Assembly: GCF_000039765.1 (NCBI RefSeq)
Contig: NC_004460.2
Coordinates: forward strand, 1,260,001-1,292,000
Source of the DNA: Vibrio vulnificus CMCP6
GTDB lineage: Bacteria; Pseudomonadota; Gammaproteobacteria; Enterobacterales; Vibrionaceae
Direction: 5' to 3'
DNA length: 32,000 nucleotides
The stretch's first letter is position 1. Each line of letters starts with the position of its first letter. The notes beneath the pieces were generated by a model, which saw nothing but the letters and a program-made list of their open reading frames with translations, was not told the origin of the DNA and did no database searches. Position numbers and translations under genes: made by a program. This document shows, piece after piece, positions 3,084 to 31,571 of the stretch.

Positions 3084-3091
3084 ACCTGACC

Positions 3092-3553: not shown

Positions 3554-4059
3554 TAGCACGCCTCCTGAAATGATTCGATATCCATCAGCTCGGCGGTATC
3601 GAGTAAAGTCATCACCTCATCACCGACATTCACCAACCCAAGCATGAATGCAGAGACGGGGGTATCACCGATCGAGGTATAAAAATCATGAGATTTGAGA
3701 CTGACGACATCCGAGACCGCATCCACCACAATCCCCATTAACCGCTCGTGATCTGGCGCTTGATGGCGCAGCACAATCACAACAGTTGTGGGTAGGTAGT
3801 GACACTCCCCCACGCAAAAGCGTTGACGTAAATCCATCACAGGCACAATCATGCCACGCAAATTGATCACCCCTTTGACGAACACCGGAGAACGGGGGAT
3901 TGGTGTCGGTCGCTCCCAAACACGAATCTCCTCTACATCACCAATAACAATGCCATAGAGCTCATTGGCCAGCGTAAAACTGAGGTATTCGACTTTGTCT
4001 GCCGAGCTTTGTTCATCCATCGTTTGTGACTCAAGGACTAAGGTTTGCTCTGATTCCAT
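3553..4059 (-). CDS. cheW: Chemotaxis coupling protein CheW (second paralog)
   Basis: CheW-like sequence (YLSFTLANELYGIVIGDVEEIR..., VINLRGMIVPVMDLRQRF). It lies directly downstream of cheA. Confidence 0.88.
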   Translation of the reverse strand: MESEQTLVLESQTMDEQSSADKVEYLSFTLANELYGIVIGDVEEIRVWERPTPIPRSPVFVKGVINLRGMIVPVMDLRQRFCVGECHYLPTTVVIVLRHQAPDHERLMGIVVDAVSDVVSLKSHDFYTSIGDTPVSAFMLGLVNVGDEVMTLLDTAELMDIESFQEAC

Positions 4060-4068
4060 GTTTGCCCC

Positions 4069-9323: not shown

Positions 9324-10298
9324 TTAGCCTAGCTTGCTTTCAAGGAACTGCAGAATCTCTTGCATGGTTTTGTCATCCACTTTTTTCAAGTTTAGTGACA
9401 AGTTGCTGCCTTTGCGGCTGTAGCTTGCGCGATCTTTCACTAGTTCAACTTTCTCAGCTTTAGCCTTTGCTTTCACTGGGCTCAGTTCCGCAATCCACGC
9501 TTCGATGTTTTCCGTCACTTCTTTGGTTAAACGAGCCACACCTTGCGCTTGGCTGCGTTGCCAAACAAAGCCTTCGTTTGTGCGGCATTTATTAAGCAGC
9601 GCTTTTTGCTGCGGTTCTGCCAACGAATTATATTGCTTGTGCAGCTTGACGATGGTTGGACGGCCAAGGTCACTCACATTTGGATACGCTTGCAGTAACT
9701 CAAGTGGTAATGAAGCCGCTTTTAATGCGCCACTGACGAGGGCTTCACTGCACTGGAACATTTTCGCCAGCGCTTTTTGGTCTTCCGCGTCGCCTTTTTC
9801 CAGTTTGGCCAACATCTCTTTGCCTTTTTCATACAAAGACAAAGGCTTGTGGGCATTCGCCACATCAGAGAGGAACTTCGCATGTTCCGTGCTGATGTTA
9901 TCCGCCACATAGACTAAGAAATCTTTGCCCGCCAAAATACAAGACATACGACGGCGACTACCGTCCAGTACTTCGATTTTGCCATCCGCCGTACGACGAC
10001 CCACGGCTGGATATTGCTGGCCACGATCACGTAGTGTGGCCAAAACATCTGACAGTGCGTGCTCGGTTAAGAAAGATTGTTCACGCGCATTTTCTGCAAA
10101 AACGGAGGTTTGTGTTGCCACTTGATCGGCGGCAATACGGATCAGCTCGAAGGTCACCGTTTCTTCACCCGCGACCGCCAATTCAATCACTTGTGCTTGT
10201 TCTTTTGCTGCTGTTTGCGCTTCTTGCGGTGTTGCCACGCGGCGTTTGTTCGCTTTGCCAAACAGTTTTGCATTGAGATCGGAAGTTTTAATCGCCAT
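9324..10298 (-). CDS. parB: Chromosome-2 partition protein ParB2
   Basis: 324 aa with a plasmid-type ParB box (VLDGSRRRMSCILAG). It lies directly downstream of parA2 and next to the RctB-type origin and parS2 sites. Confidence 0.92.
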   Translation of the reverse strand: MAIKTSDLNAKLFGKANKRRVATPQEAQTAAKEQAQVIELAVAGEETVTFELIRIAADQVATQTSVFAENAREQSFLTEHALSDVLATLRDRGQQYPAVGRRTADGKIEVLDGSRRRMSCILAGKDFLVYVADNISTEHAKFLSDVANAHKPLSLYEKGKEMLAKLEKGDAEDQKALAKMFQCSEALVSGALKAASLPLELLQAYPNVSDLGRPTIVKLHKQYNSLAEPQQKALLNKCRTNEGFVWQRSQAQGVARLTKEVTENIEAWIAELSPVKAKAKAEKVELVKDRASYSRKGSNLSLNLKKVDDKTMQEILQFLESKLG

Positions 10299-10305
10299 AA
10301 CTTAA

Positions 10306-11523
10306 TTACCCTTGATTCAATGAAGACCAGTAAGAATGCAGCACACGCTCTAGTTCCAATGCGCTCTTTTGTACTGCGTCTTGCGCCGTTGCTAAGGTCT
10401 TCTTGCCTCCTTCAAAATCACTTGTCGTGAGGTCAAATACCGTGCTGTACGTGTCGGCACAAGTTTCGAAGGCGCGGCTACGTGGAATGGTGGCCATCAT
10501 AACTTGATCACCAAGCAGATAGTTCATCTCTGTCAGCACAGAGACTTGCTTCTTGTTGTCATCTTCAAACATGGTTGGCATCAGACGCACAAACTCTAAC
10601 CCTTTCCAATCCTCTGGGAACATTTCGTACACCGTCGGTAGATGCTGGAAGAAGTTAACCGTTGATGCCCAGTCTAAACGCTTAGCCGCACATGGAATCA
10701 GCAGTGCATTGGAGGCGTACATCGCATTCCACACCAGTGGATCGACGTGAGGACCAGTATCAATCATGATGATGTCGAAGTCATCGGCAATCTTGTCAAT
10801 CAGCTTTTCTTTCAGCAGACGTACAATGTCTAGCGATTGATTTTGCGACAAATATTGCCACGCTTCAGCATTGAACATCGCATCTTCAGGGAATGCAGAA
10901 ATGGTCTTCAAGTTTGGATATTGCGTTGGTAGCAACACATTCTTGTGAAGAAACGAACGATCCACGTCGACGTTTTCCGGCACATTATCCAACATGATAT
11001 CGACCGCCGAGTAAATATTGTCGTGCTCAGCAATGCTAATTTGTGGATTGAGGAACAGACGCAGCGACCCTTGAGGATCCAAGTCAATCAAACAGATACG
11101 GTAGCGCTTGTCTAAGTTCAGTGCCAAGCAAGCGGCTAAATGCACCGCCGTCATGGATTTACCCGTACCACCCTTTTGGTTCTGTACGTTGATGATCCAA
11201 GGTTTGCCATTGCCACCATTTTTACGCTGGTGGAACTTAGGTACTCCCGCAGCGTCCATCAGCATGTGCGCTTCTTCAAGAGTGATCGAATAGTGATTCG
11301 CGTTATTCTTGGTAAACTGGTGACCTTCCGCTTCCATTTTACCGATGGCATCGTCCAACTTACGTCGGGTTAATCCAGAACGCGTTTCCATCAATGCTTT
11401 TGACATCGGCGGAAAATAATCATCACTGCGCTCTTCTAGCACTATCTCAATACGGTCGGCTTGCACCTGTTGGGTTGATTCAGCCAACTGCATGAGATTT
11501 TCGATCGTTTTTTCTCTTTTCAT
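10306..11523 (-). CDS. parA: Chromosome-2 partition ATPase ParA2 (type Ia, with N-terminal extension)
   Basis: 405 aa with a deviant Walker A (NQKGGTGKSMTAVHLAA) and LIDLDPQGS. The roughly 100-aa N-terminal extension is typical of P1 ParA / SopA-type ATPases. Confidence 0.92.
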   Translation of the reverse strand: MKREKTIENLMQLAESTQQVQADRIEIVLEERSDDYFPPMSKALMETRSGLTRRKLDDAIGKMEAEGHQFTKNNANHYSITLEEAHMLMDAAGVPKFHQRKNGGNGKPWIINVQNQKGGTGKSMTAVHLAACLALNLDKRYRICLIDLDPQGSLRLFLNPQISIAEHDNIYSAVDIMLDNVPENVDVDRSFLHKNVLLPTQYPNLKTISAFPEDAMFNAEAWQYLSQNQSLDIVRLLKEKLIDKIADDFDIIMIDTGPHVDPLVWNAMYASNALLIPCAAKRLDWASTVNFFQHLPTVYEMFPEDWKGLEFVRLMPTMFEDDNKKQVSVLTEMNYLLGDQVMMATIPRSRAFETCADTYSTVFDLTTSDFEGGKKTLATAQDAVQKSALELERVLHSYWSSLNQG

Positions 11524-11752
11524 TGTCTATTCCTTTAAGAAATATCTTTCACCCGATTGTACAGCACTTTTAACTTATGACAACAAAAAGGTGAACGGTC
11601 ATTTTGAAGAATAATCACATAAAAATGAATTCATCGCGTCATAATGATGTAAAAATCAGCAAAGACTGACTAATTGAGAAAATTCTTATTTAAAATCTAG
11701 CAAGCAGTAAGCAACAAAAGATCAAAGATTTAAAATGTTACGACGTCACATA

Positions 11753-11765
11753 TTTACAATGTAAA
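11753..11765. promoter_or_regulatory. parS2 centromere site inside the origin control region
   Basis: TTTACAATGTAAA palindrome, 11 bp from the left 39-mer-class site. Confidence 0.85.
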
Positions 11766-11776
11766 GTCATAATAAC

Positions 11777-11815
11777 TCGGAACGATTGACATTGGTCACT
11801 AAACTACGGTCAATG
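11777..11815 (+). promoter_or_regulatory. 39-mer-class RctB regulatory site (left copy)
   Basis: TCGGAACGATTGACATTGGTCACTAAACTACGGTCAATG aligns with 12253-12292. The shared ends are TCGGAA and TCACTAAnnTACGGTCAA, and the 13-nt centre is variable and AT-rich. 26 of 37 aligned positions are identical. Exact boundaries are uncertain. Confidence 0.65.
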
Positions 11816-12044
11816 TAAGATGAATTTTAACAGTGCGTATCAAAACGTTATGCCACTAGGTAAATACGAGGTCCATTTGTTCGTTCAAGCAACATTGTGA
11901 CTCGGTGGGTTATTTTAAGCTTCGATATTTTTGTACAAAATACGTTCAAAAAAGCCTCAATCCTATTCTATAAAAAGAACGAATTAATCCGTTGGAGTAC
12001 AAAAGAGGCCAATGTTCAGCTACTCCATAGATACCGACATCTCT

Positions 12045-12057
12045 TGATCATGCTTTC
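12045..12057 (+). repeat. RctB iteron (12-mer class, contains GATC)
   Basis: TGATCATGCTTTC, an exact copy of the consensus. Confidence 0.85.
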
Positions 12058-12252
12058 GATGATGGCGTAAGAACATGGAAAATGTTCATTTTATGTCTCT
12101 GGAAGAATGATCAAGTGATGCTTTAATCATTCTTCCTGATAATGAGCCGTTATCGAAACGATGATCATGGGAATTCATACTGTAAAATAGGCCTTCCGAT
12201 GATGGCGTTAATGATCCTTATAATACGGAAAGATGATCAAGTAGCGATGGAT

Positions 12253-12292
12253 TCGGAAGCATGAAAAAATATCACTAAGTTACGGTCAAATG
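12253..12292 (+). promoter_or_regulatory. 39-mer-class RctB regulatory site (right copy)
   Basis: TCGGAAGCATGAAAAAATATCACTAAGTTACGGTCAAATG. It also contains GGAAGCATGA, which is an inverted partial iteron. Confidence 0.65.
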
Positions 12293-12381
12293 CAGATAGA
12301 ACGGGAGATCAAGCTCGTTTGGCTCAATTCATCATCTAGTGAGATTGGCTTTCAGATTAGAATATTGACCTTGATATGCCG

Positions 12382-12394
12382 TGATCATGCTTTC
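12382..12394 (+). repeat. RctB iteron
   Basis: TGATCATGCTTTC, exact. Confidence 0.85.
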
Positions 12395-12510
12395 GTATTT
12401 TCTCAATGAAATAGCGATGAAAGACAAGAAGATAGATTTGCTGATTGTTTAGCCAAACTCAGCGAGAATTGCGGAAAAAACATTCGCATCCTGACAAACA
12501 AGCTTTATGA

Positions 12511-12523
12511 TGATCATGCTTCC
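12511..12523 (+). repeat. RctB iteron
   Basis: TGATCATGCTTCC. Confidence 0.85.
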
Positions 12524-12577
12524 GTCTGTTCATTATTACGAATGACAACGTGAAAACAGCAAAGTTATTCTCACCGC

Positions 12578-12586
12578 TGTGGATAA
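12578..12586 (-). promoter_or_regulatory. DnaA box (perfect consensus)
   Basis: TGTGGATAA is the reverse complement of TTATCCACA. It lies 16 bp left of the iteron array. A weaker box, TTATCCTCT, is at 12881-12889. Confidence 0.85.
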
Positions 12587-12601
12587 GTTGTTTACTCATC
12601 A

Positions 12602-12728
12602 TGATCATGCTTTCCTTCTTACGTTGATCACGCTTGCGCATTCATGATGATCATCTTTACGTCTCGGTTTGATCATGTTTTCGCAGTCTATATGATCATG
12701 CTTTCTGGATTATTATGATCATGCTTCC
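12602..12728 (+). repeat. Minimal-origin iteron array: six phased RctB iterons
   Basis: The six copies are 12602 TGATCATGCTTTC, 12625 TGATCACGCTTGC, 12648 TGATCATCTTTAC, 12670 TGATCATGTTTTC, 12693 TGATCATGCTTTC and 12716 TGATCATGCTTCC. Spacings are 23, 23, 22, 23 and 23 bp. All are in the same orientation and each carries a Dam GATC. Confidence 0.92.
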
Positions 12729-12902
12729 TAGATGGTAAAAATAAACCTTTTGTTTTACAGTAAGTTACTAGCAATTCCGCCGCTAGATCAATAGATCATA
12801 TAATCAATTAAGATCAGATTAATCAAAAAGATCAGTTATTTAAAAACAAGCTTTTTTCTTTATTTATGATCTATTTTTCTTTATCCTCTTGGAACTATAG
12901 CG
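12729..12902. other. AT-rich, GATC-dense DNA-unwinding region of the origin
   Basis: Strongly AT-rich. AGATCA occurs four times (12785, 12793, 12811, 12829), with a further GATC at 12868. Including the rctB promoter, 12729-12932 holds 7 GATC against about 0.8 expected. Confidence 0.75.
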
Positions 12903-12931
12903 CTTTTACGGTCAATGTGATCTGGATCTAG
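12903..12931 (+). promoter_or_regulatory. Truncated 39-mer-class (29-mer-like) site over the rctB promoter / 5' UTR
   Basis: CTTTTACGGTCAATGTGATCTGGATCTAG shares TACGGTCAATGT exactly with the left 39-mer-class site but lacks the TCGGAA/TCACTAA half. It ends 1 bp before the rctB ATG and contains two GATC. Confidence 0.6.
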
Positions 12932-12932
12932 A

Positions 12933-14903
12933 ATGACAACGGAAGAAAAAATACTGATCAAGGCTCCAAGAAGCCACAAAGATGGTCACCTATTTGAAGT
13001 CAATGAATCTTCAGCAGATTGGGTGGAGCAATATCAGCACTTCAAAGGGGTAACAAAAAGTATTCTTGAATTGCTAAACCTCATTTCATTAAGAGGCTTT
13101 AGCAGCAAAGATGGTTTGGTTTCCACCACAGAACTGGTTGAAGCAACCGATGGACACTTAACCCGAGCAGCGATTCAGCAACGACTGAGAGCAGCGGTCA
13201 GTATTGGTTTGTTCACTCAAACTCCGGTACGTTTTGAAGAAGGGCTCGCTGGGAAAACCATGCTGCATCACTTCGTCAATCCAAATAAATTGATTTCCGT
13301 TTTGGGCGCTACCAGCCTTGTCACTGAGAAAGTCAAACAGACCGAAAAAGAGAAGCGCTCTAAGGCACTGGCTCAAACCCAAGTGAATAAGCGACTACTG
13401 AATGAACATGGCTTGAATACCCCGCCTGGCATGAAGGATGAAGCGGATCAATTCGTGGTTTCTCCGACCAATTGGGCCGGTATTATTGATCAAGCTTTAG
13501 CACCACCAAGAACACGCAAGAATTACCAAAAATCGATGGTGTCGATTTCCGGTACACGCGCAGTGATCGAGACACGATCATCGAAAAACATCATGACGGT
13601 GGACGATCTCATGACGTTGTTTGCGCTGTTTACCTTGACGGTTCAGTACCATGATCATCACAAAGAAGAATATCAAATGGATGCGGCGCACATTCCAAAC
13701 AAAACGCCGTTGTACATCACCGATATTCTGTCTCTACGTGGCAAAAAAGACAGTGGTCCGGCACGTGATTCCATTCGCGACAGCATCGATCGCATCGAGT
13801 TTACCGATTTCCAACTGCACGAGCTTACTGGCCGTTGGTTAAGTGAAAACATGCCTGAAGGGTTCAAGAGTGATCGTTTCCGCTTCCTAGCACGCACCAT
13901 TACCGCTTCGGAAGAGGCCCCTACAGAGGGCAGTGATGGCGAGATCCGTATCAAACCTAACCTCTACATCTTGGTATGGGAGCCATCGTTTTACGAAGAA
14001 CTGCTCACTCGCGACTATTTCTTCCTGTTTCCGCCTGAGATCTTGAAACAGCATACCTTGGTGTTTCAACTCTATTCCTATTTCCGGACGCGTATGGCAC
14101 GCCGTCATACCGACAGCATGTTGCTAAGCGAACTTAACCAAAAATTGGCGCGAAACATTGAATGGCGTCGTTTTTCGATGGATCTGATCCGCGAATTGCG
14201 CCGACTGTCAGAAGGGAAGGGGACAGAGGATCTTTTCGTGGTCAATTTGTGGGGCTACCACCTAACGGTGGAAACGATCCAAGAACAAGACAAAGTGATC
14301 GATTACCAAGTCGATATCAAATGTGATGTCGAAGAGGTGCTGCGTTACTCGCGCGCGCGCACCACCAATGCGGGTAAACGCAATATGGCGCCAACTTTGC
14401 CAAACCCTCTGCGTAATGAAATGGTCAGCAAACAGAAGCTCGATGAGCTTTCAGGCATTATTGATGGTGAGTTTGAACCGATTCAGCGCAAAGAACGCTC
14501 TCCAAAAGGCAATTTGGGCCGCCGAGTGAAGCTACGTAAGCACTTAGTTGAGATCAATGCTGACGAAATCACCATTACCCTAACCAAATACACCTCCCCA
14601 GAGGCGCTAGAACGCAGTATAACGGCGTTATCGGCAATGACAGGGCATCCATATGCTTCGATTAAAGAAGAGTGCCAGGAGCTGCTAGAGAAGCTGGATT
14701 TCATTCGAGTCGATGAAAGCATCTTGCCCTACGAAACTTTGAGTAAAGTGGTTGAGCTTTACAACGGTCAAACCGAAAACAAACATTTGTCCATCGAACG
14801 TTTGATCGCGGGCTTAGCAGTACGTCGTAAAGTGTGTCGCCAAGTCTTTGAGGGGCATTTGGATGAGACGGTTTTCCGCGCGCTAGACGAAGTCGCTGTC
14901 TAA
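12933..14903 (+). CDS. rctB: Chromosome-2 replication initiator RctB
   Basis: 656 aa, directly abutting the iteron / AT-rich origin and divergent from parAB2. Size and position match RctB of Vibrio chromosome 2. The N-terminus is MTTEEKILIKAPRSHKDGHLFEV.... Confidence 0.92.
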   Translation: MTTEEKILIKAPRSHKDGHLFEVNESSADWVEQYQHFKGVTKSILELLNLISLRGFSSKDGLVSTTELVEATDGHLTRAAIQQRLRAAVSIGLFTQTPVRFEEGLAGKTMLHHFVNPNKLISVLGATSLVTEKVKQTEKEKRSKALAQTQVNKRLLNEHGLNTPPGMKDEADQFVVSPTNWAGIIDQALAPPRTRKNYQKSMVSISGTRAVIETRSSKNIMTVDDLMTLFALFTLTVQYHDHHKEEYQMDAAHIPNKTPLYITDILSLRGKKDSGPARDSIRDSIDRIEFTDFQLHELTGRWLSENMPEGFKSDRFRFLARTITASEEAPTEGSDGEIRIKPNLYILVWEPSFYEELLTRDYFFLFPPEILKQHTLVFQLYSYFRTRMARRHTDSMLLSELNQKLARNIEWRRFSMDLIRELRRLSEGKGTEDLFVVNLWGYHLTVETIQEQDKVIDYQVDIKCDVEEVLRYSRARTTNAGKRNMAPTLPNPLRNEMVSKQKLDELSGIIDGEFEPIQRKERSPKGNLGRRVKLRKHLVEINADEITITLTKYTSPEALERSITALSAMTGHPYASIKEECQELLEKLDFIRVDESILPYETLSKVVELYNGQTENKHLSIERLIAGLAVRRKVCRQVFEGHLDETVFRALDEVAV

Positions 14904-18112: not shown

Positions 18113-18242
18113 AACTCGGCCATCAAAGCGCTGCCAACCCCGTTCGCTGTTTGACAATCCTCCTGCTCGTTACTAAACACTATATCAATAAGATGTGCAT
18201 TTTGTTTCTTATTCTTTGTGTTATGACGTCAGGAGCAACATC

Positions 18243-19298
18243 ATGGAGCAACCGATTTATTTCTATGAGCCAGATGAAAATCATGGCTTTCTCGCCAACT
18301 TCTATCCATGCTCGATCACCGTTTCTGGGACGTGCTGGCCGAGCAGTGAACATTACTACCAAGCACAAAAATTCGACGATGTCCGGCTACAGGAAAAAGT
18401 GTTGAGGGCAGAAGATGCTGCACAAGCTTTTCGGCTTTCACGCGAATATCAGCAGTGGCAAAGGCATGACTGGTATGACATTCGAGTAGAAGTGATGAGA
18501 TTCATTGTGCGCGAGAAATTTTTGCAAAACACGCCCCTAGCGCATCAACTGCTTGCGACGGGAGATACTGAACTGAAAGAACATTCGCATAAGGATGCCT
18601 TTTGGGGGGATGGGGGCGATGGGCATGGACGCAATGAGCTCGGGCGTATTTTGATGATGGTTCGAGAGGAGTTGCAAGAGCACGCGCCATACAATCTGGT
18701 GCAGTTTATTGACAGTGCGAAGTTGCCTACCCAGTGGGGGACATTTCAAATGTATGGTTTCATTGAAAAAGCCACCGGGAAAGAGCATTTGGCGCTCGTG
18801 TATGGGGATATTGAACAACAGGCAGCGCCTTTGATTCGTCTGCACTCTGAGTGTTTAACAGGCGATGCGCTGTTTAGTGCCCGCTGTGATTGCGGTTTTC
18901 AGCTCGCCAAAGCCTTGCAAAACATCGTGGCAGAAGGGGCGGGCGTGTTGCTCTATTTGCGGCAGGAAGGGCGGGGGATAGGCCTTATCAATAAAATTCG
19001 CGCTTATCACTTACAAGATGACGGGGCCGACACGGTGGAAGCTAACGAGCAACTTGGCTTTGGCGCCGATATGCGCGATTACGCGTTTTGTCGCGGCATT
19101 CTCAGTTTTCTCGGCATTGAACGTGTGAGGCTGATGACCAACAACCCACGCAAGGTGAAGGCACTGCAATTGGCCAATATTGAGGTGACGGAGCGCGTGC
19201 CGCTGCAAGAAGGCAATAATCCGCACAATCATCAGTATTTAAGAACCAAAGCCGATAAGCTAGGCCACATGTTTGATCGCAACTTCGTTAAACCTTAG
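18243..19298 (+). CDS. ribA: Bifunctional NADAR (YbiA/COG3236-like N-glycosidase) - GTP cyclohydrolase II (RibA) fusion
   Basis: The N-terminal domain is [31 protein letters not shown]...AFWGDGGDG (NADAR/YbiA pattern). The C-terminal domain is [38 protein letters not shown] (RibA). The start is set at ATG 18243 ([10 protein letters not shown]) because of an AGGAG RBS; the track start 18195 is rejected. Confidence 0.88.
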
Positions 19299-20173: not shown

Positions 20174-22114
20174 ATGAGAAAAAGTATGAACGGCAAGCGT
20201 CAGATAGGCATCGACAAGCAACTGATGATTGCGGTCATTTTGTTGAGCTTAGCTTTCACCTTGGTCAGTACTGGCTTCAATGTGTACTGGGATTACAAGC
20301 AAGAGCTAAAAAAACGACAAGCCGAGCTCAATTGGGTCGAGCAAAGTTATTTGCAAAGCCTAACAGAGAGCCTGTGGGTGGAAGATCGTCAGCACCTAGA
20401 ATCGCAAGTACAAGGCATGATGACCTTGCCTTTTATTGACGCGATCGACATTGCTAACGAGAACGAAGTCATTGTCAAAACGGGCGATGTTGGCCACTCA
20501 AAACGCGTGCTTGAGCGACGTTGGCCCATGGAATATCAGTTGGCAGACAATCATTATTTGTTGGCGAATTTGACGGTGCGCTCCAATCTCGATGAAGTCT
20601 ACCAAGGGCTTTGGCGTAAGTTTGCATTGCTGCTCGTTGGGGAATCGATCAAAACCTTCCTGCTGATGGTCGGGGTGATTTACATTGCTTTGTCGCTTAT
20701 CGTTAAACCCATCAGCCTGTTGTCTCGAGCGGTGAGCGATTTTAAAGACGGTGAGACACCGAGCCGGCTTCGTTTGCCAGCTCGAGCGTTTGACGATGAA
20801 ATCTCGCTACTGGCGGAGAAATACAACAGCAGTGTTGAGCGATTGCGTAGCAATTATGCGGAGTTAAAAAGCGCCAAAGAGCAAGCGGAAGTGGCGAATG
20901 TGAAAAAAAGCGAATTTTTGGCCACCATGAGCCACGAAATCCGCACCCCGATGAACGGCATCATTGGCGTGGCTTCACTTTTAAAAGAGATGGAGCTTTC
21001 CAGTGAGCAGAAACAGTATGTAGAGATGATCAATCACTCTTCAGAATCTTTGCTCGACATCATCAACGACATTCTTGATTTCTCAAAAATTGAAGCAGGG
21101 AAAATGGCTATCTCCCTCGAGCCATTTTGCCTTAGTGATCTCGTCGAGCAAATGTGCGCCATTTATACCCTCAAGGCGCATGCGAAAAATCTGCAATTTG
21201 TTGTTGAGCTGGCCGAGGATGTGCCGCATACCATGAGTGGCGACAGCAAACACCTCAAACAAGTGCTAAATAACCTGTTGGGTAATGCGGTGAAGTTCAC
21301 CGAACGCGGCTATGTCAAACTGGTGGTCGCAAAAGAGTTGGACGCGCAGCACATACCCCATATTCGCTTTCAGGTGTTTGACTCCGGCATTGGCATTGCG
21401 AAAGAGAAGCAAGAGTTGGTGTTTGAACGCTTTCAACAAGCCGATGGCAGCACCACCAGAAAATACGGCGGTACTGGCTTGGGGTTGGCCATTTGTCGTC
21501 GCCTAGTGAGTTTAATGGGGGGAGAATTAGAGCTCAAAAGCGAAGTTGGGCTAGGCAGTTGTTTTGAATTCAGTGTTCCTTGTGTTGATGGGGAAGGCGT
21601 TTTTGCCAAAGATCGCAAAGATAATGTGCGCCATTTGCAAGAGTTGGGGGTGACCGAGGTGGACTCAGAACCCTCCTCTGCTCATCAATCCAGCCAAGTC
21701 GCAGCGCTGCCAAGAGCCTTGCTGGTGGAAGATACTTTCATCAATCAAAAAGTCGCTAAGTTGATGCTAGAGAAAATCGGCTTGGCGGTGGACATCGCAG
21801 AAGATGGTGAGCAAGCCCTTGTGCTCTGCCAGCAGCAGCAATACGGCATCATTTTCATGGATTGCCAAATGCCGGTATTGGATGGCTTTGAAACCACGGA
21901 GATTTTGCGTGCCAGCGATGGCTGGACCCGAGATGTGCCGATCATCGCGTTAACCGCCAATGTAGTGGTGGAGGATAAACAGCGTTGTTTTGACGTCGGT
22001 ATGAACGATTTTCTTGCCAAGCCGGTGACTCAGCAACGAATGAGTGACATGGTCAAACGCTATCTGCCTTTTGATGATTCCTCCACAGGCTCGCATCGTC
22101 ATCAGCAGCCATGA
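20174..22114 (+). CDS. Hybrid sensor histidine kinase / response regulator
   Basis: Two TM segments flank a roughly 125-aa periplasmic region. H-box [14 protein letters not shown]-box [26 protein letters not shown]-terminal REC domain ([21 protein letters not shown]). No Hpt domain. Confidence 0.9.
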
Positions 22115-24644: not shown

Positions 24645-24695
24645 CCGTTTATCTCAAATAGCGACCCTTTATCCCGCTATTTTTCCGTTGGTCGC
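24645..24695 (+). repeat. Three direct repeats with 20-bp phasing upstream of the seven-gene operon
   Basis: 24645 CCGTTTATCTC, 24665 CCCTTTATCCC, 24685 CCGTTGGTCGC. Confidence 0.4.
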
Positions 24696-24765
24696 AAACC
24701 CCTGTGAAGGGGCCTTGGTGCTTTTATTCTGTCATCGTCAATCAAAGCACAAGGATATCGCGACG

Positions 24766-25419
24766 ATGTTAGTGAAAAAGAAAACCATCACCACCTGCCT
24801 AATGATGACCAGTCTCTTCTTCGCGCCTATGGTCATGGCTAATCCAGATCAAGCGTTGATCAATCAATACAACCTAGCGGTGGAAGGGGAAACTGCGCTG
24901 GTGGATCACGTGTATGGTCAGTTGAACGCCTTGATCGAGCGAGAAGGTGCCAAGCCGCTCTCTCTGGTGTACCTCGGCAGCACGCAAACTTTGCAAGGGC
25001 GAGATGCCTTCTTGCCATGGAACAAAATGAAATTGACTGAGCAGGGGCTTGCGACCATCAGTAAAGGGCTAGGCATGCTCGACACCTTACCGCCCTCACT
25101 GAATGAGCAGCAGCGCATTCAAGGGCTGCCAGAGGGCTACCTTGCTCGTGCGATGGCTGCCGCCACGTTTACCTCTCTGCCCGATATGTTCAATCATTTC
25201 GAGCGCGGCTATGAACTCTATTTAGAGTTGTTAGCAGAACCGGATTTTCAAGCGCAGCCCTTTGCCGCCACCTCGTGGGTCTATCGCTATGCCATTCAAG
25301 CGGCCTTGCGCGCACAAGATGTGCCGCAAGCTAAAACTTGGTTAGACATGATGGAAAACCAAGATCGCGACAACCTTGATACCCGCTCCGCATCGGCACA
25401 AATCGACGTGCAAGGTTAA
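24766..25419 (+). CDS. Secreted protein of unknown function (first gene of the operon)
   Basis: The start is set at ATG 24766 (MLVKKKTITTCLMMTSLFFAPMVMA/NPDQ signal peptide) with an AAGGA RBS. The track TTG start at 24688 is rejected. Confidence 0.6.
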   Translation: MLVKKKTITTCLMMTSLFFAPMVMANPDQALINQYNLAVEGETALVDHVYGQLNALIEREGAKPLSLVYLGSTQTLQGRDAFLPWNKMKLTEQGLATISKGLGMLDTLPPSLNEQQRIQGLPEGYLARAMAAATFTSLPDMFNHFERGYELYLELLAEPDFQAQPFAATSWVYRYAIQAALRAQDVPQAKTWLDMMENQDRDNLDTRSASAQIDVQG

Positions 25420-25429
25420 TGGAGGCACT

Positions 25430-26125
25430 ATGATTCAGTTTTCTAATCTGCAGCGCCATTACCAGTTAGGGCTATTGGAAGTCCCTGCACTGCAATCGGT
25501 TAGCGGTGCGATTGAACAAGGTGAAATGGTGGCACTTTGTGGCCCTTCAGGCTCAGGAAAAAGCACGCTGCTCAACATCTTAGGGTTATTGGATATGCAG
25601 TATACCGGGCAAGTGACGCTGCATGGCGATGATTACCCTCGTTCGGCCAATCAAGCGGCAAAACTTCGACGCGAAAAGCTCGGTTTTATCTTCCAAAAGT
25701 TCAATCTTGTGCCAGTGATGACGGCGCTAGAGAACGTGGCGTACCCGTTATACCTCAATGGTGTCGATAAGGCCAAACAGCGTCAGTTAGCGGCTGAAAT
25801 GCTCGAACGTGTTGGCTTAGGGGAGAGTTTACATGCCTTGCCGGATCAGCTTTCTGGTGGTCAACAGCAACGGGTGGCCATTGCACGGGCGTTGGTCCAT
25901 CGGCCTACCTTAGTGATCGCCGATGAGCCGACGGCCAGCCTAGATAGCGTCACGGCCAACTTGGTTATCGACATCATGAAACAACTCGGCCATGAACGGG
26001 CCACCACGTTTGTTGTGGCTACCCACGATGGGCGAATGGCATCACGTTGCGATCGCACTATTGAACTATTAGATGGCCGCTTGCGTCAGCATCACGAGCA
26101 GGAGGTGATCTCATGGGCCAGTTAG
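25430..26125 (+). CDS. ABC transporter ATP-binding protein, MacB/LolD type
   Basis: The start at ATG 25430 (MIQFSNLQRHY) has a GGAGG RBS. Walker A GPSGSGKST, signature LSGGQQQRVAIARAL, Walker B LVIADEPTASLD. Confidence 0.9.
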   Translation: MIQFSNLQRHYQLGLLEVPALQSVSGAIEQGEMVALCGPSGSGKSTLLNILGLLDMQYTGQVTLHGDDYPRSANQAAKLRREKLGFIFQKFNLVPVMTALENVAYPLYLNGVDKAKQRQLAAEMLERVGLGESLHALPDQLSGGQQQRVAIARALVHRPTLVIADEPTASLDSVTANLVIDIMKQLGHERATTFVVATHDGRMASRCDRTIELLDGRLRQHHEQEVISWAS

Positions 26126-27378
26126 TTGCACGTCTGTTTCCTGATTCGCTGCGCTTGGCGTGGCTTAACCTAAAGCGCAATGGTCGCCGCAGCTTGTTGT
26201 CTGTTCTGATCATTGCCATTGCGGTATTCGCGTTGACCAGTGCGGGTGGGTTTGGTTTGTACACCTACGACAGCCTCAAAGAGTCAACGGCGAGAGACAC
26301 TGGCCACATTACCATCAGTACGCCGGGCTTTTTTGCTAAAGAAGAAGAGATGCCTCTGAGCAATGGCTTAAGCCAGCCTGATGACCTTATTGCCAGTGTC
26401 ATAGGCCTCAATGAGGTGCGTGGTGTGCAGCCGAGAATAGAATTCAATGGTCTCATTTCCAACGGCAGTAAGTCGGCGATTTTTGTCGGCATTGGTGTAA
26501 ATGATCGTGAATTTGATATGAAAGGGCCTTTTCTTGATGTTCGAGAAGGTAAGACGTTATCCAACCCACGAGGACAACGCTACGATCCGGCGGAACCGGA
26601 AGTGATGTTGGCGATGGATCTGGCGCGAAATCTCAATGTGACGGTGGGGGATTGGATTACCCTGTTGGCCACCACCACGGACGGAGCCCTCAATGCATAC
26701 GACTTCAAGGTGCGTGGCCTCTACGCAACGGGGGTGCCTGAGTTGGATAAGCGCCAGCTTTACATCCACATTGACAGTGCGCAATCGCTGCTGGCAACAG
26801 ACAAAGTGAGTGTGATTTCTGTGTTCCTGTTTGAGACCGAAAAAACCGCCGCCGTGCAGCAGCACTTGTCGGCTTTGCTGAGTCAGTTCTCTCAAGAGCT
26901 GAAATTGACGCCTTGGCAAGAGCGGGCCTTCTTCTATCAGAAAGTGAAAGATCTTTATGACCGTATTTTCGGCATCATGGGGGCGGTGATGGGGCTGGTG
27001 GTGTTCGTGGCACTGTTTAATACCATGACCATGTCGGTCACTGAGCGAACCCGCGAAATTGGTACCTTATCGGCACTGGGCAGTTACCCGCGCGACATCA
27101 TCATTGGCTTCTTACGTGAAGCGGGGCTATTGGCTTTGCTGGGGAGCCTTGTTGGTGCGCTAGCCAGTGGTGCTATCTCACTGCTTTTAATGGTGGTGGA
27201 TGTACAAATGCCACCGCCACCAGGCAGAACCGATGGTTACCCACTGATGGTTTATTTCTCATTTGAACTGGTAGCCATCGCGGCGGTTGGTGTGGTGTGT
27301 ATCTGCCTTCTGGCTGCCTATCTTTCTGCCCGCAAAGGGGTAAACAAACCGATTACGGAGGCGCTAACCTATGTATAA
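26113..27378 (+). CDS. ABC transporter permease, FtsX/MacB/LolC type with a large periplasmic domain
   Basis: 421 aa. TM1 (LLSVLIIAIAVFALTSAGGFGL) is followed by a roughly 200-aa loop and then three C-terminal TMs in an FtsX-like arrangement. The gene overlaps the ATPase gene by 13 nt. GGAGG RBS. Confidence 0.85.
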   Translation: MGQLVARLFPDSLRLAWLNLKRNGRRSLLSVLIIAIAVFALTSAGGFGLYTYDSLKESTARDTGHITISTPGFFAKEEEMPLSNGLSQPDDLIASVIGLNEVRGVQPRIEFNGLISNGSKSAIFVGIGVNDREFDMKGPFLDVREGKTLSNPRGQRYDPAEPEVMLAMDLARNLNVTVGDWITLLATTTDGALNAYDFKVRGLYATGVPELDKRQLYIHIDSAQSLLATDKVSVISVFLFETEKTAAVQQHLSALLSQFSQELKLTPWQERAFFYQKVKDLYDRIFGIMGAVMGLVVFVALFNTMTMSVTERTREIGTLSALGSYPRDIIIGFLREAGLLALLGSLVGALASGAISLLLMVVDVQMPPPPGRTDGYPLMVYFSFELVAIAAVGVVCICLLAAYLSARKGVNKPITEALTYV

Positions 27379-28141
27379 CGCAATAAAAGCTGGCTTATGG
27401 ATGGCGCTGCTTTGCGCCTCAAACTGGGCGTCGGCTCAACCGAGCGATGAACAAGTGATGAGTATGATCAAGCAAGCGGACGATTACCGACTCAAAGAAA
27501 CGTCTGCGCGCGTGGTCTCATTGGTGAGCCTGTATGAGAACGATCAGTTGGACAAAACTCGTGAGTACCATGTTTACACACGGCCAAATCGCGAATCTCT
27601 GGTGATTTTTAAATCGGCCGTGGAGGCGGGGCAAAAGATGTTGATGCTGCAAGATAACTACTGGTTACAAATGCCAAAAAGCCGTCGACCGATTCGCATC
27701 ACGCCAATGCAGAAACTGCTGGGGGAAGCATCGGTAGGGGACATTTCAACCCTCACTTGGAGCGAGGATTACCAAGCCACATGGAGAGCGGAGGAAATCG
27801 TGTCCTCGTTGTCAGGGCAAGCAACGTCAACACAGCATTTACAGCTGACGGCCAAAACCTCAGGGGCCAGTTATCAAACCATCGATCTGTGGTTGACCGT
27901 GCCTGAGCACTTTCCGCTCAAGGCGGATCTTTATCTGCGCTCTGGCAAGTTGGCAAAGCAAGCTTGGTTTACACGTGGCGAGCGCAACGGGGAGCCGAGC
28001 GTGACGGAAATGACGTTGCTCGATCATATTCAGCCAGCGAAGAAAACCGTCATTGAGTACCAAGATGTTCAGCCGTGGCAGCTTGAGGATAAGTTTTACA
28101 ATCCCAGCTATCTCTCTAAGGCCGATTCGGTGCAATTCTAG
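27371..28141 (+). CDS. Periplasmic LolA-like (outer-membrane lipoprotein-sorting-like) protein
   Basis: Signal peptide MYNAIKAGLWMALLCASNWASA/QP. Size and context fit the LolA-like family that accompanies FtsX-type ABC systems. The assignment rests on pattern memory and context, not on a strict motif. It overlaps the permease gene by 8 nt. Confidence 0.6.
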   Translation: MYNAIKAGLWMALLCASNWASAQPSDEQVMSMIKQADDYRLKETSARVVSLVSLYENDQLDKTREYHVYTRPNRESLVIFKSAVEAGQKMLMLQDNYWLQMPKSRRPIRITPMQKLLGEASVGDISTLTWSEDYQATWRAEEIVSSLSGQATSTQHLQLTAKTSGASYQTIDLWLTVPEHFPLKADLYLRSGKLAKQAWFTRGERNGEPSVTEMTLLDHIQPAKKTVIEYQDVQPWQLEDKFYNPSYLSKADSVQF

Positions 28142-28160
28142 CTAACTAAGGAGCAAATCA

Positions 28161-29495
28161 ATGGCGGTTTGTGTGCACCATCGACCAGCTCGTCTGTCGT
28201 CTGCTAAACGGGCAAGCAGCTTACTGCTTGGCACTTTGCCTTGGTGGACGATGGCTGGGGAATTGAGCAGTGAGTGGGATTGGGCGCTCAGTTACGAAGC
28301 GGCGCAATCTCGCCAATCCGTATTCACCACCACACAATATGCGCATCGCAGTGAACTCAACGCGATGTTGGATTTACAACTGGCGTATCACACTCAGCAG
28401 GGGCAATGGACCTCTTCGTTCGCCCTCTACAGTGATGGGCTTTATCTCAACAATGGCGAGCGATCGGTTTGGTGGGAGAGCCGTGATAGCCAGTGGGTGG
28501 TACGTGAGTTGGCTTGGTTAGGTGAATGGCAAGTCGGGGATTGGCTGCTGGATGTGAGCGTTGGCAAATTACGTTTGGATTGGGGGGTAGGCTATGGTTA
28601 TCGCCCGCTGGATCTGTTTCGACCTTATCGACAAAATCCAGTGACCTTGGTGGCCGAAGAAGGCACTGGCGTCGTCTCGTTTTCTCACTATGACTTAGCG
28701 GGAGAGTGGACGCTGCTGTTCACCGATTCCAGTTGGAGTCAGATGGAGCAAAGCGCGCTGGATGAAGCCGCGCAGCAGCGAGGCGCAGGAATCCGGCGTT
28801 ACTGGCTGGATGACGATCATGAATGGCAGTGGATCGCCTATTACGACGATGTACGCCAAGGGCTAATCGGCGGCAGTGTGAGGACGGTCTTCAACGAGGC
28901 GTTATCGCTGCATAGCTCAGCATTGTGGCAACATCAAAGCGTCGGCTATCAACTTCCGGATTCTCTGTTTGCCCCTGTGGCGGTAGAGGAGCAGGGAGAG
29001 GCATGGCAAGCGTTAGTCGGCGTGAACTGGGCCAGCGAAAGTGGTCACTCCTTGTTAGCGGAATATTGGTATGACAGCCGTGCGTGGTCAAAGCGCCAGT
29101 GGCAACAGGCGATGGATCGCGCGCGCCTGTTAACGCAGCAGCCCAATACCGAACCTCTGGCCGCCAGTTATGCACAAGGTTTTGAGCATGCGAATTTAGT
29201 TCAACACAACCTGATGCTGCATTGGAGTTGGGACAGCAACGCCTGGATGATGTGGCACGGTGTCTCCGCTCCGCAATGGTTAGCGGATGTTACGCCAACT
29301 CTCGATATCTTATTTTCGCCGGAAGATGGCGGTGTCATCCTAACTCAGTGGATTCGCTACCAATGGATTGATACTGGCCAGCAGAGTGTGGAATTGGAAT
29401 TTGCCGCACGCTTTTTAACGGGGGATAGCCAATCAGCGTATGCGCAAATTGAGGATAAGCATATGATGGTCTTGAATCTAAAAGGGAGGTTTTAG
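28161..29495 (+). CDS. Predicted outer-membrane beta-barrel protein
   Basis: AAGGAG RBS. The N-terminal region is basic then hydrophobic (KRASSLLLGTLPWWTMA). The protein is rich in aromatics, Gly and alternating residues. It ends with a C-terminal aromatic residue (LNLKGRF), typical of OMP beta-signals. Confidence 0.55.
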   Translation: MAVCVHHRPARLSSAKRASSLLLGTLPWWTMAGELSSEWDWALSYEAAQSRQSVFTTTQYAHRSELNAMLDLQLAYHTQQGQWTSSFALYSDGLYLNNGERSVWWESRDSQWVVRELAWLGEWQVGDWLLDVSVGKLRLDWGVGYGYRPLDLFRPYRQNPVTLVAEEGTGVVSFSHYDLAGEWTLLFTDSSWSQMEQSALDEAAQQRGAGIRRYWLDDDHEWQWIAYYDDVRQGLIGGSVRTVFNEALSLHSSALWQHQSVGYQLPDSLFAPVAVEEQGEAWQALVGVNWASESGHSLLAEYWYDSRAWSKRQWQQAMDRARLLTQQPNTEPLAASYAQGFEHANLVQHNLMLHWSWDSNAWMMWHGVSAPQWLADVTPTLDILFSPEDGGVILTQWIRYQWIDTGQQSVELEFAARFLTGDSQSAYAQIEDKHMMVLNLKGRF

Positions 29496-30599
29496 ATGTT
29501 TTTTTCTCGGGTAGCAAAAAATCGTGCCGCGCAGGAAGCGTTGTCATCCAATCACTTAGCGAGCAACGACGCGCAAGCCCTTGAGGGCGGATGGTTACGC
29601 TCGTTTGCCGTGACGTCTGTCTTCTGCTTGTTTGTGTCAGTGCTGACCTTATCTGTTTGGGGCGGCGCTTACTATATCCATTTGATCATTAGCTTTGGTT
29701 TCGGTTATTCGGCGTTGTTCTTCTCTTGGCTGATCGAAAAGCTCTTCCCTATGATGCCAAGAAACGCGGAAATCCTTCTCTCCCTAACGGCATGTTTGCT
29801 GTTTGGTATTCTCAACGCGCGTTTTTGGGTGGGGGATTACTTTGGCATCACTGATATGGTTCCGGTGGGGCTGATGGGACTGTTGTTTAGCGGGATGTGT
29901 TATTTCTATTTTCACTCCAAAGAGCAACAAATGTTGGCTGCTCACGAGTTAGAAGTGATGAAACGTGAGAAAGCCGAGCAAGAGCGCGCCCTGTTAATGA
30001 GTCAACTCAAACAACTGCAAAGCCAAATAGAGCCGCACTTTCTGTTTAATACTCTGGCCAACATCAGTGCGCTCATGAGCTGTGATGTGGAGAAAGCCCA
30101 GCAGATGCTGACGCGTTTAACCGATTTATTGCGCTCAACGCTGAAGAGTTCGCGTGAAGAGAGAACGTTACTCGCCAGTGAACTGGAGATTCTCGATGCC
30201 TATCTCGCGATTCAAAAAATTCGTTTGGGTGAGCGGTTGGAGTATCACATTCATTGCCCAGAGGCGCTGAAAGGGTGTGTGATTCCACCGATGTTGATCC
30301 AACCTTTGGTGGAAAATGCCATTACGCATGGGATTGAACCCAAAGTGCAAGGGGGCAAAGTTGAGGTCCGAGTAATGAAAAATGAACTCGGCCTTGAGCT
30401 GCGCGTCGTGGATACTGGGGTGGGCTTTGGGCAAGCCTCTCGCTCGGGATCGGGGGTAGGGCTTAACAACATTAAACAACGTTTGGCGACCTTGTTTGGT
30501 GAATTAGGCACGCTAACTCTATTGGAAGGTCGCCACGGTGGGGTTTGTGCTGTTATACAAATGCCGCCGCAACAAGAGAAACAGGAAGCGAAAGCGTGA
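29496..30599 (+). CDS. LytS/YehU-type sensor histidine kinase (membrane-embedded sensor, no periplasmic domain)
   Basis: About four TM helices with only short loops, then a His_kinase-type region ([17 protein letters not shown]) and an HATPase region ([29 protein letters not shown]). The start codon directly follows the upstream stop. Confidence 0.88.
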
Positions 30600-31366
30600 T
30601 GACTTCAATGACGGCGTTGATTGCCGATGATGAACCCCTACTGAGACACCACCTCAATCGGATGTTGGCGGATGTTTGGCCTGAGCTCGAGGTGGTGGCG
30701 TTGGTGGGGGATGGGCAGCAAGCCCTCACTTCGATTGAACAACTTCAGCCCGATATCGTGTTTTTGGATATCCGCATGCCAGAGCTTGATGGTATCGCTG
30801 TGGCAAAACAGCTCAATCGTGGTGAGTATCGTCCAACCATCGTTTTTGTGACCGCTTATGATGAATATGCGGTGAAAGCCTTTGAGCAACAAGCGATCGA
30901 TTACTTAATGAAGCCACTGAGCGAAGCGCGTCTTATCGATACTTGCCAACGCATCAAAGCACGTCAACAGCCCACGGTATCGCCACCGGATGTGGGGGCG
31001 TTGTTGAGTCAACTTCAGGCGTTGTCTAAACCGGCGCAACCTCAATATCTACAGTGGATTCGCGCGGCATTAGGAGACGATATTCATCTTATCTCGGTGA
31101 ATGATGTACTCTATTTTAAAGCGGAAGAAAAGTACGTCACCGTGCACACCCTTGCCAAAAAAGAGTTCCTGATTCGCATGTCGTTAAAGGAGCTTTTGGC
31201 CCAACTTGACCCCGAACGGTTTTGGCAAATACACCGAGCGTCGGTCGTTAATGTGGCAGCGATAGAGAAAGTGCAGAAGGATTTTACGGGGCGAATGTCG
31301 GTGACGGTCGGGGAGCAAAAGCTGCCAGTCAGCCGCGGCTCTCAGCATCTGTTCAAAGGCATGTAG
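30599..31366 (+). CDS. LytTR-family response regulator
   Basis: The start at ATG 30599 ([15 protein letters not shown]) overlaps the kinase stop (TGATG). REC domain ([16 protein letters not shown]) plus a LytTR DNA-binding domain ([23 protein letters not shown]). Confidence 0.9.
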
Positions 31367-31500: not shown

Positions 31501-31519
31501 TTGCGTAAACAAAAGAGAA

Positions 31520-31536
31520 GGGCAGCGTCGCTGCCC
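31520..31536. terminator. Hairpin terminator between convergent genes
   Basis: GGGCAGC-GTC-GCTGCCC. T-rich tracts follow on both strands (TTGTCGTTGCTGTTTT on plus, TTCTCTTTTGTTT on minus). Confidence 0.6.
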
Positions 31537-31571
31537 TTGTCGTTGCTGTTTTGTTGCGTTTGCAACGGATG

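Follow-up and report, generated by a model that had tools for sequence, protein, structure and literature searches.

A compact seven-gene cassette on chromosome 2 of Vibrio vulnificus CMCP6 appears to encode a dedicated route across the cell envelope together with the two-component system that would control it. The cassette occupies positions 24766–31366 of the stretch of DNA analysed here, 32,000 nucleotides of the forward strand (NC_004460.2, positions 1,260,001 to 1,292,000), which is called the window. Its products are a small secreted protein (p1), an ABC ATPase, a type VII permease, a LolA-like carrier, a predicted outer-membrane (OM) β-barrel (p5), a histidine kinase and a response regulator. 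The seven-gene module is real, conserved and uncharacterised, and its components are placed in the expected compartments by domains, signal peptides and structural models. We lean, by a modest degree, toward the view that it regulates its own expression and exports, across the envelope, a molecule that partitions into membranes and is lipid-like or amphiphilic. What is new here is a predicted barrel family without a Pfam model, a phased putative operator, and the occurrence of the transporter core in lipid clusters beyond the Vibrionaceae.

The seven open reading frames (ORFs) lie on the same strand and are tightly packed (Table 1), with junctions of +10, -13, -8, +19, 0 and -4 nt; the four overlaps or abutments and the range of gaps described in the initial annotation were recovered exactly, and the reading of the genes as one operon held. 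The permease, the LolA-like protein and p5 match three GenBank entries in a row, AAO08086–AAO08088, without any difference, and from the numbering of consecutive accessions the cassette would correspond approximately to VV2_1187–VV2_1193. In V. fischeri ES114 the orthologue of the LolA-like protein is VF_A0735. Literature searches for VV2_1189-1193 and VF_A0732-0738 found no mention of the Vibrio locus tags in the library searched, and searches for PF17131, TP0789 and 'lipoprotein-sorting protein' returned no relevant paper. This agrees with the earlier statement that the gene set had no experimental characterisation; a computational paper of 2026 covers an analogous cluster in Borrelia. A scan of the window with Rfam gave no match.

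Table 1. Window positions of the cassette genes, of the putative control sites around them, and of the replication-origin features of chromosome 2.
Feature	Position	Strand	Remarks
p1	24766-25419	+	217 aa, secreted, all-helical
ABC ATPase, MacB/LolD/DevA type	25430-26125	+	231 aa
Type VII (MacB/LolC-like) permease	26113-27378	+	421 aa, four transmembrane helices
LolA-like carrier, TP_0789-like family PF17131	27371-28141	+	256 aa
p5, predicted 18-stranded OM β-barrel	28161-29495	+	444 aa
AlgZ/LytS-type histidine kinase	29496-30599	+	367 aa, PF06580 plus HATPase_c
REC-LytTR response regulator	30596-31366	+	256 aa; UniProt name VV2_1193
Putative LytTR (AlgR-type) operator	24645..24693	+	three direct repeats, exact 20-bp phasing, in the 172-bp region upstream of p1
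Operator repeat 1, CCGTTTATC	24645-24653	+	-121 from p1 ATG
Operator repeat 2, CCCTTTATC	24665-24673	+	-101 from p1 ATG; one mismatch
Operator repeat 3, CCGTTGGTC	24685-24693	+	-81 from p1 ATG
GC-rich hairpin, AAGGGCAGCG-T-CGCTGCCCTT	31518..31538	.	between the operon and a convergent MCP (methyl-accepting chemotaxis protein) gene
parB2-like gene	9324-10298	-	
parA2	10306-11523	-	ParA HTH plus AAA_31
Low-GC stretch	~11.5-12.9 kb		36-40% GC
rctB	12933-14903	+	RctB_central, E 7e-221

Relatives of p5 were sought by scanning one genome per species; 125 were found, and the best 80 loci, from Vibrio, Photobacterium, Aliivibrio and Ferrimonas, were fetched and compared. When these loci were searched by tblastn with all seven proteins, the seven genes stood in identical order in every locus uncut by a contig end (77/77). 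The cassette is present in V. natriegens, V. fischeri, V. harveyi, V. parahaemolyticus and V. vulnificus, and the full set also in V. mimicus. The flanks vary between species, with yebC and lysR upstream in some loci only; the upstream LysR gene was considered as a part of the unit and rejected, since it adjoins the cassette in a subset of loci only. A version with six of the genes is carried by the 302-kb plasmid p1 of Plesiomonas shigelloides (NZ_CP062197.1, our locus L081, 4901-10933). It lacks the gene for the p1 protein and keeps the operator box, which points to horizontal movement of the unit and to a dispensable p1 protein. Taken with the core of ATPase, permease, LolA-like protein and barrel found in Alpha-, Beta- and Gammaproteobacteria and in metagenomes, the seven-gene synteny extends the proposed co-occurrence of the genes well outside this lineage.

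In V. mimicus, of the cholerae clade, the cassette lies between aldo-keto reductase and giant RTX-type adhesin genes (contig L099, 1-16651), and genes for an M4 protease, a Lipase_bact_N protein and a FadL homologue are found upstream. The VCA0849–VCA0865 region of V. cholerae is one that we take to resemble this locus, with VCA0850 as a candidate for the orthologous regulator. A VCA0850 deletion strain is listed in Table S1 of Cheng et al. 2015, and the locus is absent from the main text of that paper.

The ATPase belongs to Pfam ABC_tran (PF00005, E 2e-34). Its best NCBIfam matches are LolD, DevA, MacB and YbbA, every one below its cut-off; for LolD the score is 218.9 against a cut-off of 307.75 bits. 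The permease combines MacB_PCD (PF12704, E 4e-15) with FtsX (PF02687, E 3e-18), its sequence matches in the PDB are YtrF, LolC, 5XU1 and MacB, and it scores 86.6 against the lolCE cut-off of 362 bits. By hydropathy the first transmembrane (TM) helix lies at residues 28-46 and the next hydrophobic segment starts from 285, leaving about 240 residues in the periplasm; the large periplasmic domain of a type VII permease was therefore borne out, being somewhat longer than the roughly 200 residues first proposed. As the cassette has one permease gene only, the protein is presumed to act as a homodimer. When orthologues are compared, conservation within the cassette is highest in the permease (0.81), its periplasmic domain reaching 0.79, and this fits a conserved substrate.

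The carrier matches PF17131 over profile positions 3-183 of 184 (E 1e-35; 123.6 bits, with a Pfam gathering cut-off of 30) and the structure 3BUU, the LolA-superfamily protein NE2245, over almost its full length (E 1e-21). Its type I signal peptide ends in ...NWASA, followed by QP. By sequence it is a member of the LolA superfamily, not LolA proper, which gives substance to the soluble periplasmic LolA-like protein expected of this ORF. The absence of a membrane-fusion adaptor was also upheld, as no domain of the HlyD/membrane-fusion-protein or TolC-like kind was found by Pfam in the seven proteins, nor in annotated relatives.

The 444-residue p5 had been taken for an OM protein from its terminal Phe, and the AlphaFold2 model now predicts a closed barrel with 18 long strands by DSSP (pLDDT 88.2, pTM 0.82), into which a helical hairpin is inserted at residues 311-342. 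The C-terminus reads ...KGRF, and clear type I signal peptides are present on the orthologues, so that the barrel assignment is sustained. Foldseek against the PDB returns AlgE (E 6e-10), OccAB1 (1e-9), chitoporins, OprD-family channels and Wzi at TM-scores of 0.50-0.57, values of about 0.5 that would reflect a generic 18-strand barrel. In Pfam and NCBIfam p5 has no match, including to Alginate_exp, OprD and Caps_assemb_Wzi, and weak Wzi matches occur in 4/39 distant members of the family (best E 7e-5). The sharpest conservation in p5 falls on the loop GKLRLDWGVGYGYRPLD at residues 134-152. By exhaustive profile search the family comprises 260 representatives at 50% identity, 153 of them at E 1e-10 or better, and no Pfam family is assigned to any of the 260. 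On the model, p5 thus defines a predicted OM barrel family that lacks a Pfam model and was previously unrecognised.

The first gene of the cassette codes for p1, whose signal-peptide-like N-terminus ends in ...APMVMA before NPDQ; as read from the sequence, both p1 and the LolA-like protein have type I signals without a lipobox. In the AlphaFold2 model (pLDDT 90.3) p1 forms ten helices in hairpin repeats, and by Foldseek it resembles tetratricopeptide repeat (TPR) proteins weakly (TM-score 0.50-0.57, E 1e-2 or worse). It has no match in Pfam or NCBIfam, and TPR lacks sequence-level support. The protein is absent from the Plesiomonas version and from most distant versions of the cassette. The initial annotation had offered cargo or accessory factor for this protein; cargo was rejected on account of these absences and of the folded solenoid model, and the accessory half of the suggestion stands, with a TPR/Sel1-like periplasmic adaptor or scaffold being the more likely role to judge from the model. 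Beside the four-gene core of three metagenome contigs (L085, L089, L097), on either side of it, lies a gene of the DUF2141 family (PF09912), whose product may replace p1 as the accessory periplasmic component.

The last two genes encode a pair that is AlgZ/AlgR-like by its sequence features. The kinase shows four hydrophobic peaks within residues 33-137, joined by loops of at most 12 residues, and no periplasmic domain, just as had been supposed; as read from the sequence, it has kept the H box (EPHFLFNTL), the N box (ENAITHG) and the G boxes. It is the least conserved protein of the cassette among orthologues (0.57). The regulator consists of Response_reg plus LytTR by Pfam, with the acidic pocket kept, and its best NCBIfam matches, BtsR and LytR, are both below cut-off.

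Upstream of p1 the motif CC(G/A)TT(C/T)(G/A)(T/C)C recurs in most loci in 2 to 4 copies with 20-bp phasing. The proximal box lies 76-92 nt before the p1 start codon in nearly all loci, and the spacing between adjacent copies is exactly 20 bp in 67/82. When both strands of the 80 loci and the window (1.37 Mb) were searched, 75 phased pairs were found, of which 72 precede p1 by 60-170 nt; a further two also stand upstream of p1, in loci with a mis-set start. Ferrimonas has three phased boxes, and in Plesiomonas ACCGTTCGTCGC precedes the first gene, that for the ATPase. The core motif coincides with the AlgR consensus CCGTTCGTC and with the variants described for it, CCGTTTGTC and CCGTTGTTC (PMC4064291). 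The agreement with this consensus and the almost exclusive position of phased boxes upstream of p1 imply autoregulation, in which the cassette's own LytTR regulator would bind the boxes and activate the operon; the circuit would be a positive one, because the genes of the kinase and the regulator are the operon's last two. Read by eye, TATTCT at 24726-24731 is a candidate -10 element. At the other end, the hairpin between the operon and the convergent MCP gene was called on the - strand by the terminator scan and is followed by a T-rich tract on the + strand too, so it probably terminates both transcription units; in the same scan, terminator-like sites inside the operon were at chance level. 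A lone AlgR-like box, ATGACCGTTCACCTTTTT, was also seen at 11585-11602 (-), 62-79 nt upstream of the parA2 start; its position weight matrix (PWM) score of 14.2 equals chance for the window, and it has no phased partner.

The nature of the cargo is argued from distant relatives. A search with a profile of distant barrels returned 7 proteins, whose gene contexts were looked up. The order ABC_tran, MacB_PCD/FtsX, PF17131 and barrel, often with a DUF2141 gene, was found in four of the six members with readable contigs, and the other two contigs carry barrel, His_kinase and LytTR genes; in one further context a protein with LytTR only is encoded upstream. In the distant contexts L091, L097 and L098 the barrel or the transporter has a LytTR-type regulator beside it. 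The first of these, a metagenome contig (942-10262), is a rearranged relative and encodes, in this order, a barrel, a His_kinase, a LytTR protein, two S8 peptidases, a p1-like protein (E 1.5e-36), an ATPase and a permease, and an AlgR-like box is located directly upstream of its barrel gene.

More distant cores were obtained by tblastn of the LolA-like protein against plasmids. In five records the 'hypothetical' gene after the LolA-like gene matches the distant-barrel profile with E-values of 4e-22 to 1e-6: Burkholderia sp. FXe9 (4e-22), an E. coli IncK2/Z plasmid (5e-19), Aliiroseovarius (9e-12), Haematospirillum, where the gene is split, and an E. coli O157 island next to ycdU (1e-6). On the E. 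coli IncK plasmid a p1 homologue (E 4e-9) stands directly upstream of the ATPase, indicating that the order p1, ATPase, permease, carrier, barrel is ancient. The neighbours of these cores are telling. They are an acyl-AMP ligase, an acyl carrier protein, a ketoacyl synthase of type III (KAS III), two desaturases and a pyridoxal-phosphate decarboxylase in Burkholderia; ketosynthases, an anthrone-oxygenase-like protein and an OmpR/HAMP two-component system in Aliiroseovarius; a ketosynthase, a crotonase, a PfkB kinase and acetyltransferases on the IncK plasmid; and two ketosynthases and a malonyltransferase in O157. In Paraburkholderia a core whose barrel gene is unconfirmed by the profile has a P450, a phosphopantetheinyl transferase and a lipase beside it. 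MacB/FtsX transporters are a recognised class of exporters linked to biosynthetic gene clusters in Gram-negatives (PMC7849407), and the embedding of the cores in biosynthesis clusters that resemble fatty-acid synthase and polyketide synthase (FAS/PKS) systems argues for a lipid-like or amphiphilic small-molecule cargo and is the best evidence we have for one. In the record of a major pathogen, E. coli O157:H7 EDL933 (NZ_CP124742.1; L092, 557-12082), this transporter core thus belongs to a lipid cluster that is still uncharacterised.

From these elements a working scheme can be drawn, in which the direction of transport, the hand-over steps, the protein contacts, the binding of the regulator and the nature of the cargo are all conjectural. 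A cue in the plane of the membrane would activate the four-TM kinase, which would phosphorylate the LytTR regulator; the latter would bind the three phased boxes at -121, -101 and -81 and switch on a seven-gene, translationally coupled transcript. Mechanotransmission is established for MacB and LolCDE. By this means the ATPase dimer and the homodimeric permease could pull the cargo from the outer leaflet of the inner membrane, and the permease would then hand it to the soluble PF17131 carrier for crossing the periplasm. The carrier would deliver it to p5, which may insert it in the outer membrane or pass it through, while p1, as a periplasmic α-solenoid, may serve as a docking adaptor. A bolder proposal, held tentatively and in our judgement somewhat more apt to fail than to stand, is that the cassette represents a fourth trans-envelope route for hydrophobic molecules beside Lol, the Lpt/Mla-type bridges and the tripartite pumps, running from extractor to TP_0789-family carrier to a barrel with a GKxRxDWGVGYGxRPLD loop in its lumen or gate. 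Such a route would be used by proteobacterial fatty-acid and polyketide clusters, and in the Vibrionaceae it would have become stand-alone and substrate-inducible, with the AlgZ-like kinase reading cargo or transporter load in the membrane.

Several observations weigh against export of a lipid-like molecule along this path. The Vibrio cassette is without biosynthetic genes, so that the cargo would have to be made elsewhere or come from outside. The proteins whose folds come nearest to the p5 model (AlgE, Wzi, OprD, chitoporin) act on polysaccharides or hydrophilic solutes rather than on lipids. In a phmmer alignment to LolC (7ARH) the permease lacks about 6 residues over LolC 165-182, the Hook region by which LolC docks LolA, and its sequence there is unconserved; docking of the carrier is to that extent unproven. 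The assignment of p1 to TPR proteins is weak, given the Foldseek values and the lack of a Pfam match, and its absence from Plesiomonas and most distant versions allows it an accessory role at most. Regarding regulation, single boxes of the window reach PWM scores of 14.4 and 12.7, which do not rise over those of shuffled sequences (13.7 +/- 2.1), and the operator is therefore judged from its position and phasing across species; a scan of the 172-bp upstream region found no sigma-70 consensus promoter.

The lack of biosynthetic genes in the Vibrio cassette would suit an exogenous substrate, and the system could then serve detoxification after the manner of Bce modules, with the transporter clearing the membrane of an amphipathic toxin from outside (bile, fatty acid, antimicrobial peptide or lipid) and the permease, itself the sensor, signalling its transport activity to the kinase by direct contact. 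In all loci from Vibrionaceae, Ferrimonas and Plesiomonas the genes of the two-component system keep strict synteny with those of the transporter; this, the lack of a periplasmic domain in the kinase and the presence of a putative autoregulated operator are all as this explanation would have it. Nevertheless we consider it unlikely, because the permease has four TM helices and BceB ten, the PF06580 kinase and the LytTR regulator belong to other families than BceS and BceR, the TM region of the kinase is moderately conserved (0.57), and the transporter core elsewhere occurs without a two-component system or with an OmpR/HAMP pair. Flux sensing of the Bce kind is a possibility drawn by pure analogy, with no specific support besides synteny. 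An alternative Lol pathway for one or a few specific lipoproteins, in which p5 would act as an insertase in place of LolB, draws on LolC/E and LolD being the nearest named families of the permease and ATPase and on the carrier's place in the LolA superfamily, and the same proposal has been made for Borrelia BBJ23-29 (PMC13078400). It is improbable here, as the scores fall far under the Lol equivalog cut-offs, there is no lipoprotein gene in the cassette, the signals of p1 and the LolA-like protein are of type I, and the relatives of the core reside in fatty-acid and polyketide clusters, not beside lipoprotein genes.

The transport could also run inward, the barrel admitting a hydrophobic nutrient, the LolA-like protein shuttling it to the inner membrane and the ABC transporter importing it or flipping it into that membrane, with the substrate inducing its own uptake through the two-component system. 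We think this very improbable. The resemblance of p5 to substrate-specific uptake channels (OprD/Occ, chitoporin) and the proximity of a FadL homologue and a lipase gene in V. mimicus speak for it; flanking genes, however, differ between species, the association with biosynthetic clusters favours export, and the type VII transporters of the MacB superfamily are extractors or exporters working by mechanotransmission, among which we know of no importer. The least credible explanation is secretion of a polysaccharide or capsule-type polymer, as an analogue of AlgK-AlgE under AlgZR-like control. AlgE is the top Foldseek match of p5 and Wzi is matched as well, p1 is TPR-like as is AlgK, and the boxes equal the AlgR consensus. 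Yet none of the 80 loci has a glycosyltransferase, polymerase, copolymerase or Wza/Wzc-like gene within the cassette or next to it, the LolA-type fold of the carrier is one that binds acyl chains, and the TM-scores of p5 are those of any 18-strand barrel; export of an alginate-like polysaccharide was rejected for want of glycan synthesis genes.

Other parts of the window may be noted in brief. The replication origin region of chromosome 2 extends over 9324-14903 (Table 1), some 10 kb away from the cassette. A chemotaxis cluster at 660-6183 (-) encodes a PAS-containing MCP of 811 aa, two CheW proteins and a CheA with Hpt, H-kinase_dim, HATPase_c and CheW domains. Upstream of the cassette lie genes for a NADAR domain fused to GTP cyclohydrolase II (18195-19298, +) and for a CHASE5-HisKA-HATPase-REC hybrid kinase (20174-22114, +).

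Crossing of the periplasm and OM by hydrophobic molecules is known for few cargo classes, namely lipoproteins, lipopolysaccharide and phospholipids, and the cassette offers a compact, conserved and genetically tractable parts list for another such route. It is feasible to convert the operator to a reporter for inducer screening, where the inducer is probably the cargo. Since the same core occurs in uncharacterised lipid clusters such as those of the E. coli IncK plasmid and the O157 island, working out a single one of these systems would give annotations to hundreds of 'hypothetical' genes and might bring new surface lipids or antibiotics to light. Given that V. vulnificus is a lethal pathogen, an inducible system for envelope remodelling or detoxification could bear on its survival in the host.

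Known systems resemble the cassette in part. The BceRS-BceAB modules of Firmicutes likewise couple an FtsX-type ABC transporter genetically to a kinase without an extracellular sensor domain, whereas BceB has 10 TM helices, BceS and BceR are of other families, and the Gram-positive host has neither carrier nor barrel. The AlgZ(FimS)/AlgR system of Pseudomonas aeruginosa shares a four-TM PF06580 kinase without a periplasmic domain, a REC-LytTR regulator and AlgR-box repeats, the four helices of AlgZ lying in its first 150 aa (PMC4064291). Unlike the sites of that system, the boxes of the cassette are 2 to 4 tandem direct repeats with 20-bp phasing upstream of the regulator's own operon, and the genes they would control are unrelated to alginate or pili. 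MacAB-TolC and DevBCA-HgdD have in common with the cassette a MacB_PCD plus FtsX permease and a MacB/DevA-like ATPase, and they export amphiphiles, as the cassette would. DevBCA exports glycolipids. In contrast to both, the cassette is without an HlyD-type adaptor and a TolC-like trimeric duct, and a soluble LolA-like protein and a monomer-type barrel would bridge the periplasm instead; by its sequence it is a type VII ABC system lacking the adaptor and the duct that define MacAB-TolC.

The nearest counterpart in print, alike in overall composition, is the BBJ23-BBJ29 cluster on plasmid lp38 of Borrelia burgdorferi, described on computational grounds only (Nixon et al., Biosci Rep 2026; PMC13078400), which combines an ATPase and a homodimeric MacB-like permease with secreted TPR proteins, a LolA-like protein and an OM β-barrel. 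Detectable homology is limited to the ATPase (31% identity, E 7e-39) and the permease (22%, E 3e-21). BBJ28 is unrecognised by PF17131, the Omp85-like BBJ25 has no match to the p5 profiles, and BBJ23 and BBJ24 have none to the p1 profile; the gene order is another and there is no two-component system. The tblastn search with the LolA-like protein did not reach Borrelia plasmids. Homology of the whole module was therefore rejected, the profile tests being negative save for the ABC parts, and the analogy kept.

The closest parallel in logic is LolCDE-LolA-LolB of E. coli, with which the cassette shares a type VII extractor, a separate LolD-like ATPase, a LolA-superfamily carrier, a dedicated OM acceptor (here a presumed one) and the lack of a fusion adaptor. 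It departs from it in having one permease gene in place of the LolC/LolE pair, scores far below the equivalog cut-offs, a permease in which the Hook of LolC is unconserved in sequence by the phmmer alignment, a carrier of PF17131 (TP_0789-like) and an 18-strand barrel, not the lipoprotein LolB, as the acceptor; no second LolA/LolB-like gene was found among the seven proteins. Owing to the scores of the permease and ATPase, the single permease, the carrier family and the missing LolB, the cassette appears Lol-like in logic but not a member of Lol. The first half of the earlier formula of a Lol-like logic with a dedicated hydrophobic cargo thus holds as logic and not as membership, and the second half gains from the distant cores in FAS/PKS-like lipid clusters. 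Unlike Lol, the cassette would be inducible via a two-component system of its own.

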